Positions 7,327-64,000 of a DNA stretch of 64,000 nt are shown in pieces. Every line of letters starts with the position of its first letter. Position 1 is the stretch's first letter. The notes below the pieces were generated by a model, which saw only the letters and a program-made list of their open reading frames with translations, searched no databases and was not told where the DNA came from. Made by a program: the position numbers and the translations under genes. The stretch comes from Acinetobacter phage vB_AbaM_14/CRR8. The stretch lies in sequence record PV611675.1; one strand, 5' to 3'.

Positions 7327-7617
7327 TCTCTTGTATCCAACAAATTCTTTTAAAGCATCCACAAAGAATGGTTGCATAACAAGTTGCATACACAAAGCTT
7401 CATCGAAAATCTTACCAACGTTGACATCTGTTTCAAATCCAATCTCGTCAAAATGTTGATTGATACGTTTAGCAAAGCTGTCAATACCTCTTGCACATCC
7501 AAATATCATAATTCCTATGTCTTTTGGGTCATGTCTCTCAAGCATAAGCTCTTCAAACTCTTCATAGGTCCAGCCTTCCCTTGAACCTGTAATTAATAAT
7601 GCTACATGTTTCATCAA
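7324..7617 (-). CDS. DUF2493/SLOG-family Rossmann-like protein
   Basis: 97 aa. ITGSREGWT...IMIFGCARGIDSFA resembles the GGxxGxD nucleotide-binding loop of DUF2493 proteins, which are common in phages and plasmids. Confidence 0.4.
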   Translation of the reverse strand: MMKHVALLITGSREGWTYEEFEELMLERHDPKDIGIMIFGCARGIDSFAKRINQHFDEIGFETDVNVGKIFDEALCMQLVMQPFFVDALKEFVGYKR

Positions 7618-8288
7618 TAATCCTCTCTAAAATATTTGGCATCATCTTTCATCCGACGATTTCTTTCAAGAATATCTATATTTGGAATACGCTTGAAAAT
7701 ATCAGAGAAAGAAGTTTTTGGTTGTTCAACATGGTGTGTATTAGCACTTACTTGCTCCATAGCTGCATCAATAGCAGAGAAGTAGTCATCTAAATCCGAC
7801 CCATCATCTTCATCTTCAATTAATGGTTCAACAGGTAATTCTTCTCTTTTACCAACTAAATGTTTTAAAGCATCTGGAATACCTTTGACAACATTAGGTC
7901 TTGATTCACCTTGTTTCTCAAATGAATCTTCCATTTGTGTCTTTGGTTTAACAACCTTAGATACTTTCTTAACAACTTCTTTCACAGCTTTCTTGACAAT
8001 GTTAAGAAGCTTACAAGCTTTTTCAGTAATTGAATAATGTGTAGTACGGGTATGACCCATGTCATGAGAAATGATAATGAGACCAAAATCAACTAACTTT
8101 TTCTTAGCTCTTTGAATTTGACTCTCAGATAATGAGCCTTCGAAGTCTTCAGACAGTTGTTTATTAGTTCGATACACCTTATCCACATTCTTAGTCTCAG
8201 ACCAGAACTTAATGTGGTTAAGTAAGAGAGCAGCTTGAATACCAACTAAGTTAGCTACTTCTGGATTGTAAGATTTAATATACGACAT
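7614..8288 (-). CDS. putative DNA-binding protein (N-terminal winged-helix-like, acidic C-terminal half)
   Basis: The ORF in the track begins with GTG at 8321. The likely start is the ATG at 8288, with RBS gaggtgttatc. Its stop overlaps the start of the DUF2493 gene. It is transcribed from the minus-strand promoter at 8591..8618. Confidence 0.35.
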   Translation of the reverse strand: MSYIKSYNPEVANLVGIQAALLLNHIKFWSETKNVDKVYRTNKQLSEDFEGSLSESQIQRAKKKLVDFGLIIISHDMGHTRTTHYSITEKACKLLNIVKKAVKEVVKKVSKVVKPKTQMEDSFEKQGESRPNVVKGIPDALKHLVGKREELPVEPLIEDEDDGSDLDDYFSAIDAAMEQVSANTHHVEQPKTSFSDIFKRIPNIDILERNRRMKDDAKYFREDY

Positions 8289-8398
8289 GATAACACCTCT
8301 TCGATGTAGGCAATCATACACACCTTAAAAACTCAGATCAATATTTAATTTTATTTTTAATTTAATTTTATTCTATTAATAACATCTGACAGATACGA

Positions 8399-8500
8399 AG
8401 AATGGATTTTTCAAAAACGATAAATGGATATTTTGAAACTGAAACATGGAATTTATGATATCGAAATATGCATATTTCAGTATCGAAAAATGGAAAGGAA
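8399..8500. repeat. four spaced copies of A(A/C)ATGGA(W)WTT (iteron-like) in the divergent control region
   Basis: The copies are aatggatttt (8401), aaatggatat (8422), acatggaatt (8444) and aaatggaaag (8488). A perfect 16 bp palindrome lies between them. Confidence 0.4.
8463..8478. promoter_or_regulatory. perfect 16 bp palindrome GAAATATGCATATTTC (operator candidate)
   Basis: Exact dyad symmetry read directly from the sequence. It lies between the divergent promoters. Confidence 0.4.
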
Positions 8501-8539: not shown

Positions 8540-8590
8540 GGATATAAATATATAGTAATTGACAGGACTAAAAAATTATTGTAGATAGTT

Positions 8591-8618
8591 ATAGTACCAC
8601 AAAAACGGATTTTGTCAA
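8591..8618 (-). promoter_or_regulatory. minus-strand sigma70-like promoter (TTGACA-N16-TACTAT on the - strand)
   Basis: The + strand reads atagta...tgtcaa. This is the only plausible promoter for the 7614..8288 / 7324..7617 minus-strand operon. A near-identical copy occurs at 63141..63168. Confidence 0.5.
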
Positions 8619-8653
8619 GTCATTTATTGTTACAGAAATGTAAACAGTAAGGC

Positions 8654-61413: not shown

Positions 61414-61809
61414 ATGGATAAGTCAGAATTACTTAATCTAGCTGCTAGTGTTGCTTTATCATTCTTAGGTAATAATGCAGAAGCTCCTCAAGGTGATGGC
61501 TTTGTGAAAGTTTATAGTGATGCAAACGAAACAATGTTTGTGTTGAAAACTCGTGAATCTCTTGTAGGTGGTGCTTGGATGAAGACAGCGACTGTAAGGT
61601 CTGTATTTAAGCAATATCCTAATATTGGCACTAAAGTAGAGGGTAGTTATTTAGTGAACTGTGAAAATCGTCAATATACGATTGACTCTGTGATGAAAGT
61701 CAATTCAAGTGGCAAGGTGTTGGATGTTCAACATGCTACGTTTAGAACATGGTATAAAGCCGATGATCAAGCATTAGAAAACATGATTGATTTTGTTTGT
61801 GAGGGTTAA
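61414..61809 (+). CDS. hypothetical protein
   Basis: 131 aa. RBS aggttttaag-ATG. Confidence 0.4.
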   Translation: MDKSELLNLAASVALSFLGNNAEAPQGDGFVKVYSDANETMFVLKTRESLVGGAWMKTATVRSVFKQYPNIGTKVEGSYLVNCENRQYTIDSVMKVNSSGKVLDVQHATFRTWYKADDQALENMIDFVCEG

Positions 61810-61813
61810 CAAG

Positions 61814-62326
61814 ATGAAAGAGCTTAAAACTATTGATTTGTGTGAACTTGCCCCTGAGCTAATAAAAGAGTATATAATTATTGGTGACGACAAAATTGAC
61901 TTGTTATCAATATTAAAAATCTTTCGTGACTGGGTAGAGAACCCAACAAGTAGAACTCTTAAGATTAATAGTCAAAATGGTATTAATAACGGCTTTAGTC
62001 TATCTTCTGGTATCTGTGGGAATATTAATTTTATCTGGGTAGACAGTACAGAAGATAAAAGGAGTATTGACCTTATGATACCTTTACATAGAATCTTTAA
62101 ATTATGGCCTAAATGTAGTGGTGATCTATGTTACCCAATCCCTAACCCATATGTAGAGAATCCAACCCATCTCGATAATGCAGACGTTTATCAAGACATT
62201 TCTAAGAGTGGGCGTTATAGCCTATATGATAAGACATCGGAGTATGGGCGACTTAGACTTGAGTTACTGGATTTTCTAATAGAGACGATTAAAAATGACT
62301 TTGATTTGTACATAGAGAAGTATTAA
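61814..62326 (+). CDS. hypothetical protein
   Basis: 170 aa. RBS gagggttaacaag-ATG. Confidence 0.4.
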   Translation: MKELKTIDLCELAPELIKEYIIIGDDKIDLLSILKIFRDWVENPTSRTLKINSQNGINNGFSLSSGICGNINFIWVDSTEDKRSIDLMIPLHRIFKLWPKCSGDLCYPIPNPYVENPTHLDNADVYQDISKSGRYSLYDKTSEYGRLRLELLDFLIETIKNDFDLYIEKY

Positions 62327-62609
62327 ACATATTGTAACTTTGTGTAAATTAGGTCCTTTGTATGATGCATTGGGCCTACTGTCTATCGACAGTATACTAA
62401 ATATAATTAAATCAATTGTTTGCACACTGCAAACATGTATACAAATTCAAGGATGTTTTTCGACGACGACAAAGGAGAAAAACAAGTAAATGACTATTGT
62501 TAATAGCGTTCGCTTGCGCTCAATTGCTATTAGGGAAATGTTAAGTATAACTATGGTACTATCGTACCAGAAGGTTAAACAATAGCTCTAACGAGCTTAT
62601 ATAACCAAT

Positions 62610-62630
62610 GAGGCTTATAGCCTCTTTCTT
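62610..62630 (+). terminator. intrinsic terminator GAGGCttataGCCTC + TTTCTT
   Basis: Read directly from the sequence. Confidence 0.45.
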
Positions 62631-62714
62631 GCACATCAATTTACTCGTATCCACTCGTTATCATCTCTCAAACCCTTTAAGGGCAATGTATTTGCAAAGC
62701 AAATAGGTTTTAAT

Positions 62715-62805
62715 ACCTATCTAGTATTCATCTATCTAACATACCTATCTAGGGTTATTACTTATCTAAATAAACATATCTAGTATGTACTTATCTAGGG
62801 TAATT
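62715..62805. repeat. six direct copies of YYTATCTA(G/A) spaced 13-17 bp apart (iteron array)
   Basis: The copies are acctatctag, catctatctaa, acctatctaggg, cttatctaaa, catatctagt and cttatctaggg. The region is non-coding. Confidence 0.5.
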
Positions 62806-63057
62806 TCATCAAGAAACATGAGAAGTATTACATTACAAGAAAGGGTAGATTCATCTAGTTTATTAGGCAAACCTATGTCTCTTTTACAAGTATATTTTTG
62901 TAAATTTAAATTTGATTAAATAACTCACAAAAGTTAGACTTTGTCAAGCAGAATTTTCAGAGAATTTACTGTTTCATAGATGTGCAAGAATGTCAAGAAA
63001 TATTGAAATTTCCTGAGATTTAATTAAATTAATTGAAATAATAAATAAAGATAACGA

Positions 63058-63086
63058 TTGACAGGATGAGAATTGACAGGTATAAT
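63058..63086 (+). promoter_or_regulatory. consensus promoter TTGACA-N17-TATAAT
   Basis: gaTTGACAggatgagaattgacaggTATAATga. A second TTGACA lies in the spacer, so the promoters are overlapping tandem ones. Confidence 0.5.
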
Positions 63087-63140
63087 GATAATAGGATTAT
63101 AATAATAGACAGGACTGCAATAGATGATGATGATAAGAAT

Positions 63141-63168
63141 ATAGTACCATAATTTCTCAAAAAGTCAA
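63141..63168 (-). promoter_or_regulatory. minus-strand promoter (TTGACT-N16-TACTAT on - strand), a duplicate of the 8591..8618 promoter and its upstream CATTTATTGTTA element, with no ORF downstream
   Basis: The + strand reads atagtaccat...agtcaagtcatttattgtta. The identical atagtacca and gtcaagtcatttattgtta blocks occur at 8591-8632. Confidence 0.4.
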
Positions 63169-63214
63169 GTCATTTATTGTTAAGAATTGTAATTAAATTA
63201 ATTTAAATTAGTTG

Positions 63215-63243
63215 TTGACAAGATGATGAGAAAGGGCCATAAT
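63215..63243 (+). promoter_or_regulatory. near-consensus promoter agTTGTTGACAagatg-N-agggCCATAATgggc
   Basis: TTGACA-N17-CATAAT. It drives the 63270 and 63392 ORFs. Confidence 0.55.
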
Positions 63244-63269
63244 GGGCACATAGTAGAGGAGTTATACAA

Positions 63270-63380
63270 ATGAAATGTAACGTACACAATATGATTGACA
63301 ATGTAGAGTATGTATTCAGTGTTGTTATGGTGATGTTATTCTCACTTGTAGCGTACTTTGCTGGAATTAACTTATTTTAA
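63270..63380 (+). CDS. small hydrophobic peptide (36 aa)
   Basis: MKCNVHNMIDNVEYVFSVVMVMLFSLVAYFAGINLF. RBS gaggagttatacaa-ATG. Confidence 0.25.
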   Translation: MKCNVHNMIDNVEYVFSVVMVMLFSLVAYFAGINLF

Positions 63381-63391
63381 GGTGTAAGACA

Positions 63392-63703
63392 ATGACAACA
63401 TTAAATCAAGCGGTAAATGGTGAATTAGTAAAGGGTACTATTGTACTATCTCAAATCATCCGTGAGACAGATTTCTTTATGGACGACATAGGCAATCGTT
63501 ACAGCTTGCAAATGTCAGGTGATGCAGACATAGACGGCAATGATGAATATGCATTGCACGATTATGAAGGTGGAACTCTTGGCTATGTGATTGAGTCTGA
63601 CATGGTGGCATATACAGTCGATTGTGCTAAGAACATCACTAAGGTCCGTATATGTGGTCTATGGCTACTACCTTATAAGCATGTACCAGTCAAGCTCATC
63701 TAA
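63392..63703 (+). CDS. hypothetical protein
   Basis: 103 aa. RBS aaggtgtaagaca-ATG. Confidence 0.4.
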   Translation: MTTLNQAVNGELVKGTIVLSQIIRETDFFMDDIGNRYSLQMSGDADIDGNDEYALHDYEGGTLGYVIESDMVAYTVDCAKNITKVRICGLWLLPYKHVPVKLI

Positions 63704-63723
63704 TGTGTAAGACAACAAACAAC

Positions 63724-63750
63724 AAGAGGGCCTAGTGTCCTCTTTCTTAT
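63724..63750 (+). terminator. intrinsic terminator AAGAGGgcctagtgtCCTCTT + TCTTATTG
   Basis: Loop contains CCTAGTG, as in the terminators at 7302 and 21075. Confidence 0.5.
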
Positions 63751-63960
63751 TGTCATAATATCAATAACAATATCACATCATTAACTATTTATTATAACAG
63801 CATAGTGCATCAACCAACTGTACACCATACAACATATAAACAATAACAGCAAACACATCACAAATTTTATTAACTCCATAGCATACTCTCCTAAAGTATA
63901 ACACAGATATTCAAATCTATATAGCCAAATATTTACAAATTTTTCACAGATATTCCAATT
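63746..63960 (+). other. G-depleted (A/C/T-rich), strand-asymmetric non-coding tract containing CAGATATTC(A/C)A repeats, ending in a TTGACT promoter-like site at 63961
   Basis: About 215 nt with only a handful of G residues on the + strand and no ORF on either strand. The motif cagatattcaa / cagatattccaatttttcag recurs at 54088-54120. Confidence 0.4.
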
Positions 63961-64000
63961 TTTCAGTTGACTTATATTTTAGGGTGTGGTAGGATGGGTT

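Follow-up and report, generated by a model that had tools for sequence, protein, structure and literature searches.

What is the role of the roughly 0.9 kb of DNA (62330-63250) that carries no gene near the right-hand end of the 64,000-nucleotide (nt) sequence of Acinetobacter phage vB_AbaM_14/CRR8 (PV611675.1; the whole stretch is called the window here)? By nucleotide comparison, the window belongs to the genus Saclayvirus of Acinetobacter myophages, with one-strand coding and ~37% GC. The region holds clustered hairpins, an array of short direct repeats and promoters facing both ways, and the initial annotation offered three readings of this layout: a transcription-activated replication origin, a packaging or terminus region, or a locus producing a regulatory antisense RNA. 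The second of these is borne out, in that the left boundary of the direct terminal repeat (DTR) falls at 62866, inside the region, which is very probably the junction between the right arm and the DTR of a Saclayvirus genome, with the anatomy described below. Among phages with long exact terminal repeats, the choice of the cut site is understood in detail only for T7.

Boundaries of the direct terminal repeat

Positions 62000-64000 are 89-94% identical to TAC1, phi1_092033, Ab_121, CP14, Aci01-1, Aci02-2, Aci05 and Liucustia (89-92% for the Aci phages and Liucustia) and 77-83% identical to HB01, D22, KissB and P1, the P1 figure being 77% over the DTR part. In several relatives the match extends to the last base of the record, where a terminal 'repeat_region' is annotated, and both copies of the repeat are present in the relatives' records. 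These ends were set by the step in read coverage that repeats produce (Essoh et al., 2019, PMC6318358) and by PhageTerm (PMC11283397). The annotated DTRs of Aci02-2 (1198 bp), Aci05 (1151 bp) and Liucustia (1052 bp) have a common start column, which corresponds to window position 62866 (GGCAAACCTATGTCTC), and the P1 repeat (1153 bp) opens with the identical sequence. The right ends of all four read ...GGTAGGATGGGTT, which is window position 64000. Aligned from these four relatives, the right-hand copy of the DTR occupies 62866-64000 (+ strand; 1135 bp), and the window ends at its last base. The annotated repeat of Aci01-1, too, has the same boundaries and terminal sequences as the window.

Among phages that are otherwise 90% identical, similarity is lost over the 60 nt preceding 62866 and is regained precisely at that position. 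The left terminal motif and the right boundary (...GGTAGGATGGGTT followed by AAGYCAACAC) are conserved in three lineages, while the 60-nt linker outside the left boundary is variable. The ends are therefore conserved among relatives and the flanking unique DNA varies, as a DTR boundary demands. Because the left boundary lies inside the gene-free region, the region is not one element; on the sequence, it is a composite in which the unique right-arm tail is joined to the head of the DTR. The anatomy given here comes from an alignment of 12 phages plus Acibel004, the most distant relative. While the terminal repeat is already annotated in relatives (as 'repeat_region' only), the array, the hairpin block and the promoter trio are undescribed in the papers that we read on these phages, including PMC6318358 and PMC11283397.

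The absence of a credible open reading frame (ORF), noted from the start, holds up: all ORFs listed for the region have at most 49 amino acids, and their starts or frames are not conserved. Small ORFs of 27, 31, 44 and 49 amino acids were considered as genes and rejected, since HB01, D22 and the phiAbaA1 clade lack the start codon or have a disrupted frame.

A repeat array with a lineage-specific motif

The array consists of six direct repeats at 62714-62805 (+ strand), with consensus TAC(C/T)TATCTAG(G/T)RT, core TATCTAR and a period of 13-17 nt. The core units start at 62718, 62733, 62746, 62763, 62777 and 62792, giving spacings of 15, 13, 17, 14 and 15. Six such units had been reported in the initial annotation, each with two pyrimidines in front; the array is present and non-random, but the pyrimidine pair precedes only five of the six. 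The clustering (6 units in 81 nt) has a Poisson probability of ~1e-11, and no more than 3 per 100 nt occurred in any of 300 shuffles. Outside the array, the + strand has only 13 copies of TATCTAR in 64 kb, and the window as a whole shows no enrichment of the motif (30 matches, 27.5 expected).

An array of 5-6 TATCTAR units is retained by ten relatives, HB01 and D22 (about 80% identity) among them, with slight variation in copy number (one unit fewer in Liucustia, one degenerate unit in UOL-KIMZ-24). Four further phages, phiAbaA1, Acba_22, Rocket and KissB, have no TATCTAR in the slot and carry five CTTGACATGTA-type units (TTGACATGT motif) with a 15-nt period instead. In Acibel004, the same slot is filled by five (T)CTTGAAG units with a 13-14-nt period, preceded by the same hairpin and followed by the terminal motif 56 nt downstream. 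Across the three lineages, slot, orientation, copy number (5-6) and period (13-15 nt) are thus kept while the motif is TATCTAR, TTGACATGT or CTTGAAG, and the three units resemble diverged versions of each other (CTATCTAGTAT, TCTTGAAGTAT, CTTGACATGTAT). Within each genome all copies carry one variant of the motif, and the spacers differ.

The array lies close to the site of terminase cutting in all lineages, 56-96 nt separating the last unit from the mapped left boundary of the DTR; in the window, the last unit starts 74 nt before it. The intervening linker (62806-62865), which diverges between otherwise 90%-identical phages, has gained 11 nt in Ab_121 and 21 nt in D22. These indels approximate one and two helical turns, which with two cases is only a hint.

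A concerted change of motif within genomes is what co-evolution of the sites with a phage-encoded, sequence-specific binder would produce. Moreover, A. baumannii is the host of every one of these phages, and binding by a host protein would not call for a change of motif. The conserved slot with its lineage-specific motif therefore points to a putative sequence-specific binder encoded by the phage.

Terminal motif and predicted promoters

The DTR opens with a conserved terminal motif, GGCAAACCTATGTCTCTTTTACAAG (62866-62904), shared by all three lineages, in contrast to the linker upstream. Within it lies the inverted repeat TTTACAA-N8-TTGTAAA (TTTACAAGTATATTTTTGTAAA), which had been recognised earlier and placed at 62875-62896; the repeat is real, and its position is 62883-62904, 8 nt to the right. 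A scan of viral contigs for the terminal motif returned only Aci02-2, phiAbaA1 and chance matches inside unrelated genes. Two conserved islands follow inside the DTR (62926-62999), CACAAAAGTTAGnnTTTGTCAAGCA (62926-62950) and AATGTCAAGAA (62989-62999), which are invariant columns in eight phages of the three lineages. Each contains an invariant leftward-facing CTTGACA (62940-62950 and 62989-62999) with no −10 partner seen in the sequence. The CTTGACATGTA units of the phiAbaA1 clade and the TTCTTGAAG units of Acibel004 resemble the reverse complement of the second of these elements, TTCTTGACATT.

Three predicted host-type promoters follow. The rightward early promoter P-R1 (63058-63086, + strand; TTGACA-17-TATAAT) matches the sigma-70 consensus at 12 of 12 positions and is overlapped by a second promoter match (63073-63100), and P-R2 (63215-63243, + strand; TTGACA-17-CATAAT), which precedes two genes in the DTR, matches at 11 of 12; both had been called as consensus promoters before, and rightly so. 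Between them lies the leftward 'orphan' promoter P-L (63141-63168, − strand; TTGACT-16-TACTAT, TG-extended, 9 of 12), with an upstream block reaching to 63182. Its counterparts are TTGACA-17-TATACT in HB01, D22 and Acibel004 and TTGACT-16-TACACT in phiAbaA1. In the three lineages, all three promoters keep their position and quality, although ~36% of the surrounding columns diverge.

As the initial annotation had observed, P-L duplicates a minus-strand promoter at 8.6 kb (8590-8632); the gene driven by that promoter is, on our analysis, the one for the replication initiator. Exact duplicates are TATAGTACCA (8590-8599 and 63140-63149) and a 19-nt block (8614-8632 and 63164-63182), and the paralogy spans ~200 nt. 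P-L faces P-R1, the start sites as read from the sequence being ~40 nt apart. A P-L transcript begun in the left copy of the DTR would run off the genome end after ~270 nt; one begun in the right copy, or within a concatemer, would pass over the cut site and then the array before reaching a bidirectional hairpin at 62610-62624. No conserved ORF lies downstream of P-L. A structured leftward non-coding RNA was considered and rejected, as the transcribed region folds no better than shuffled sequences (z = −1.1).

Hairpin block upstream of the array

On the right-arm side, the region is rich in hairpins. Perfect hairpins with a stem of at least 6 and a loop of 3-8 number 6 in 62330-62710; the mean is 0.87 per 380 nt, and this is the densest cluster in the 64 kb. 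From hairpin density, conservation and covariation, we read 62327-62630 (+ strand) as the structured, non-coding and terminated 3′ end of the right-arm transcript. It contains the hairpins ACTGTCTATCGACAGT (62378-62393; element 62377-62394), TTTGCACACTGCAAA (62419-62433; element 62417-62435), GTTTTTC/GAAAAAC (62455-62483), AATAGC/GCTATT (62502-62531), AGCGTTCGCTTGCGCT (62505-62520) and GGTACTATCGTACC (62555-62568; element 62554-62569), another at 62584-62597, and an intrinsic terminator found by terminator scan, GAGGCTTATAGCCTC followed by TTTCTTGCAC (62610-62624). The four hairpins originally listed are all present, within 1 nt of where they had been placed; the GTTTTTC and AATAGC hairpins and the terminator are additions. 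A further addition, a small palindromic hairpin directly before the array, ATTTGC-AAA-GCAAAT (62689-62705; ATTTGCAAAGCAAAT at 62690-62704), is found in all lineages.

The core of the block, 62409-62533 (125 nt), is ~85% identical even in the phiAbaA1 clade, whose flanks are unalignable by megablast. In the alignment, 12 of 43 consensus pairs stay paired through changes on both sides. In UOL-KIMZ-24, TTTGCA/TGCAAA becomes TTTGTA/TACAAA, and the terminator stem GAGGC/GCCTC is replaced by ATGAC/GTCAT in the phiAbaA1 clade or AAGCTT/AAGCTT in Acibel004, each followed by a TTCTTGCAC tail. The stem of the 62689-62705 hairpin likewise shows compensatory changes, to ATCGC/GCGAT in HB01 and D22 and to CTTTGC/GCAAAG in Acibel004. 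Liucustia has GGTAC/GTACT, with a G-T pair that would be G-U only on the + strand, and since pairs of this kind are compatible with G-U on that strand only, the structure is suggested to act in + strand RNA. Rfam covariance models gave no match at E ≤ 1 in 61800-64000.

An invariant CGACGACGACAAAGGAGAAAAACAA sits in the GTTTTTC/GAAAAAC hairpin of the core, which may be a functional element of the 3′ untranslated region or a small RNA. A promoter-like sequence, TTGACC-16-TAGAAT (10 of 12), lies at 62067-62094 inside the last right-arm gene and could give a separate transcript of ~520 nt, running over the hairpin block to the terminator at 62624.

Comparison with known packaging sites and a model for the junction

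The closest analogue that we find is the T7 concatemer junction, with its heptamer arrays (SRL/SRR), A0, phiOL and A1-A3. In the T7 record, the 160-bp terminal repeat is immediately adjoined by ~12 CCTAAAG units (nt 175-340; period 13 nt), and units in a looser arrangement lie before the right repeat. Annotated at nt 224 is A0, an E. coli promoter directed leftward at the genome end; phiOL and the early promoters A1 and A2 come next. To our knowledge, no function has ever been established for the T7 heptamer arrays. The two junctions are alike in having an exact direct terminal repeat, direct repeats of ~7 nt with a 13-15-nt period just outside it, a leftward host-type promoter toward the genome end and strong rightward host-type early promoters nearby, the Saclayvirus promoters being predicted from consensus matches in three lineages. 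They have no sequence homology. T7 has a 160-bp repeat, arrays on both sides, promoters outside the repeat and its own RNA polymerase (phiOR, junction pause), whereas the Saclayvirus repeat of 1.1 kb is seven times longer and holds the promoters and two genes, the array is found on the right-arm side only, and the host polymerase would serve. No array is seen beyond the right boundary of the DTR in the relatives, and no phage RNA polymerase is annotated in them, although no systematic search for one was made. PaP1 (Pakpunavirus), tried as a distant test of an array beside a DTR, was set aside: its record has one DTR copy with unannotated boundaries, and no regular array is seen.

Terminase sites made of short repeats include the R sites of lambda cosB, the seven hexamers TGATCA/G of the coliphage P1 pac site and the pacL boxes of SPP1. 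The array resembles these sites, which have several short protein-binding units of the same sequence within ~100 bp of the cut and whose specificity differs between related phages. However, cosB and pac sites adjoin the terminase genes and have a demonstrated small-terminase footprint, while in Saclayviruses the terminase genes are ~12 kb from the left end and the array is only a putative binding site. Furthermore, the Saclayvirus cut yields a long direct repeat and not a cohesive end or a headful series.

In T7, maturation starts when RNA polymerase pauses at the concatemer junction and thereby recruits gp18/gp19 (PMC3276506), and plasmid packaging needs an origin, a pac site and the terminal repeat (PMC13236587). 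For Saclayviruses, we propose a related scheme, in which the region would be the left half of the concatemer junction. The last right-arm transcript would end in the conserved multi-hairpin tail and intrinsic terminator (62327-62630), leaving a transcriptionally quiet stretch (62689-62805) that carries the small hairpin and the six TATCTAR units. After the 60-nt linker, the DTR would open at 62866, the position at which terminase has to cleave to produce the left genome end. A protein bound to the array, most simply the small terminase subunit or an accessory factor, would set up this cut 56-96 nt away. P-L would fire back over the cut site and the array, and this leftward transcription may assist the process, much as RNA polymerase pausing does at the T7 junction. 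Taken as a whole, this account, a DTR junction that carries a docking site for end formation or packaging, is the explanation towards which we lean. Its more specific part, that the array itself is where a phage-encoded, sequence-specific protein docks for end formation or packaging, appears to us a serious possibility that stops short of being probable.

The obvious candidate for such a protein is the product of the gene immediately upstream of TerL (Liucustia_24, 123 amino acids), predicted to be helical or coiled-coil with an acidic tail. Its identity falls from 97-98% in close TATCTAR phages to 87% in UOL-KIMZ-24, 73% in HB01/D22, 54% in the phiAbaA1 clade and 46% in Acibel004, where TerL over the same series has 100, 96, 91, 89 and 75%. 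The pattern is compatible with a recognition subunit, and it is not discriminating, because when 122 shared ORFs were ranked by divergence against the complete D22 and phiAbaA1 genomes, the candidate came 34th (54% identity to phiAbaA1 against a median of 70%). Among ORFs conserved in D22 and diverged in phiAbaA1, none has a DNA-binding annotation, and those with the sharpest contrast have no recognisable function. Searches of Pfam, PHROG, NCBIfam and the PDB with the candidate and with the flanking proteins of 179 and 103 amino acids found no function, and a single-sequence AlphaFold2 model of the 179-amino-acid protein had a mean pLDDT (predicted local distance difference test) of 35 and was unusable.

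Several points weigh against the docking-site explanation. The window carries one copy of the DTR only, and its boundaries are placed by alignment to relatives. Arrays are on one side of the DTR, unlike in T7, and the array-to-terminus distance varies (56-96 nt), so any geometry would be loose. The candidate small terminase owes its label only to gene position and coiled-coil-like sequence, and its rank among the shared ORFs is unexceptional.

The docking idea could be taken further. The array might serve as an 'address label' specific to each lineage; a phage protein that evolves fast (the small terminase or another partner) would read it and select the junctions to be cut, such that co-infecting Saclayviruses package only their own DNA, with leftward transcription by the host polymerase licensing the cut. 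We regard this extension as doubtful. If true, the pause-and-recruit mechanism of T7 would have a counterpart that uses the host polymerase, and T7-type heptamer arrays would gain a function.

Alternative readings of the array

The reading as a replication origin makes the array an iteron set of a primary or secondary origin, which leftward transcription would activate or prime and to which the O-like initiator might bind. The array has some of what iteron origins (lambda ori with O protein, plasmid Rep/iteron systems) would lead one to expect: direct repeats that adjoin AT-rich DNA (62866-62930, 77%; 63005-63057, 83%) and a conserved promoter, P-L, that is aimed into them and is paralogous to that of the initiator gene. 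In T7, too, promoters close to the two ends serve as secondary origins (phiOL and phiOR in its annotation). However, iterons are ~17-22-bp repeats with 11- or 22-bp spacing, whereas the units here have a core of 7-11 nt at 13-17-nt spacing and no autocorrelation peak at 11 or 22. No DnaA box (TTATCCACA with at most one mismatch) is present in 62-64 kb, and a DnaA-box-like GTATCCACT at 62649-62657 was discarded as having two mismatches and not being conserved as a box. The AT-rich stretches are only modestly above the local 67%, and the initiator gene is 54 kb away.

All that the array lacks in this respect (repeat length, spacing, DnaA boxes, adjacency to and co-conservation with the initiator) is found at 8.2-8.5 kb. 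The product of 7614-8288 (− strand) matches phage families of replication initiators (PHROGs 6493, 11233 and 9773), with a DnaD-like loader at 7e-13 and O-like initiators at 1e-12 to 1e-8, and its homologue in phi1_092033 is annotated as a replication initiation protein. Directly upstream of this gene are four repeats with an exact 22-nt period (8396-8494; autocorrelation peaks at 22 and 44) and, nearby, a 90% AT tract (8325-8385), a 16-bp palindrome, GAAATATGCATATTTC (8463-8478), and a perfect DnaA box (8179-8187) with an inverted near-perfect partner (8213-8221). The motif of these repeats is unchanged in D22 and phiAbaA1, where the initiator has 81-90% identity. Since the DTR-adjacent motif changes where the initiator and its own repeats do not, binding of the initiator to the TATCTAR units is unlikely. 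Together, these observations make 8179-8500 the best candidate for the replication origin and disfavour the transcription-activated origin of the initial annotation: the array and the junction region are probably not an origin, and the iteron reading strikes us as distinctly unlikely; a secondary origin there is conceivable. As for the surroundings of the initiator gene, D22 has HNH homing-endonuclease genes adjoining it and after the DNA polymerase gene (L028 42859-43431 and 49542-50072), places at which window-type phages do not appear to have them.

Other readings keep the DNA at the junction free of any role in cutting or attach its function to transcription. The transcript that P-L would start at 63134 might be an antisense or interfering RNA that damps the convergent P-R1 by transcriptional interference, with the array incidental. 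The conservation of P-L in three lineages amid heavy surrounding divergence, its convergence with P-R1 and the equivalent leftward promoter of T7, A0, all speak for this, and to that extent the antisense suggestion of the initial annotation survives; the ordinary folding of the transcript and its want of a conserved ORF speak against it, and it leaves the conserved slot with its concerted motif change unexplained. We consider it unlikely as a full account, and it is in any case compatible with the docking-site explanation and no replacement for it. The array could instead be an operator or roadblock for a phage-encoded transcription regulator, with no part in DNA cutting, which insulates the early promoters of the DTR from right-arm transcription in concatemers or controls the leftward transcript. 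Its place between a terminator cluster and a promoter cluster, in DNA otherwise transcribed only from P-L, would suit this, and a lineage-specific motif suits any phage-encoded DNA-binding protein. However, no repressor-like gene is adjacent, and a DNA-binding signature is absent from the flanking proteins; operators tend to be palindromes or to overlap promoters, but the six units have the same orientation and are >250 nt from the nearest promoter, in a slot that is fixed relative to the terminus and not to a promoter. On these grounds an operator seems rather unlikely. That the repeats are functionless products of slippage or recombination in gene-free DNA would fit the small variation in copy number in Liucustia and UOL-KIMZ-24, but slot, copy number, orientation and period are kept in lineages at about 50-70% protein identity, and each genome has one motif with differing spacers, which makes this reading very improbable.

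Implications

Saclayviruses provide a natural experiment on end formation, in which terminal motif, slot and geometry are conserved and the repeat motif has been swapped at least twice. Because the motif changes while the rest is conserved, array-swap and binding experiments are straightforward to design. The analysis also relocates the likely replication origin to the region of the initiator gene. For A. baumannii phages that are therapeutic candidates, true ends and cis elements matter for genome engineering, for the orientation of records and for spotting faulty ones, such as that of P1. In the P1 record (OL960030.2), 501 nt are exactly duplicated in tandem just after the left DTR and 496 nt are missing just before the right one (L009 1-1653; L010 2340-2390), most likely the result of a coordinate slip of ~500 nt in rebuilding the linear record and not biology. 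P1 had been considered as a natural deletion of the hairpin block and array with an unaltered terminus, a case that would have shown the array to be dispensable; this was rejected since it is 100% identical to HB01 over the junction; with the duplication and gap put down to a reconstruction error, P1 is uninformative on array function.

Neighbouring genes and further elements

The last protein-coding gene of the right arm (61787-62326, + strand; PHROG 28830) encodes a protein of 179 amino acids and unknown function, with homologues at the same place in all relatives. Its distant homologues, for example in Shewanella phage KASIA and Pseudomonas phages Astolliot and Milchi, lie near genome ends or inside annotated terminal repeats of unrelated phages. 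Within the DTR, two small genes (63270-63703, + strand; 36 and 103 amino acids) have annotated homologues in relatives and no family match, and they are followed by a terminator found by terminator scan (63724-63744). A tRNA scan of the window found no tRNA.

Just inside the right end of the DTR, an 11-nt direct repeat, CACAGATATTC, occurs at 63902-63912 and 63945-63955, and in all lineages the unique left arm has a third copy, (Y)AGATATTTT, 40-56 nt past the right boundary (e.g., about 1250 in L004). The reverse complement of CACAGATATTC shares TATCT with the TATCTAR units, and the repeat is unchanged where the array motif changes. Finally, all lineages share a promoter-like TTGACT-17-TAGGAT (TG-extended) at 63967-63995, ending 5 nt short of the right boundary. 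It might initiate transcription into the left arm, opposite in sense to the leftward genes found there, or it might belong to the terminase site for the right end.

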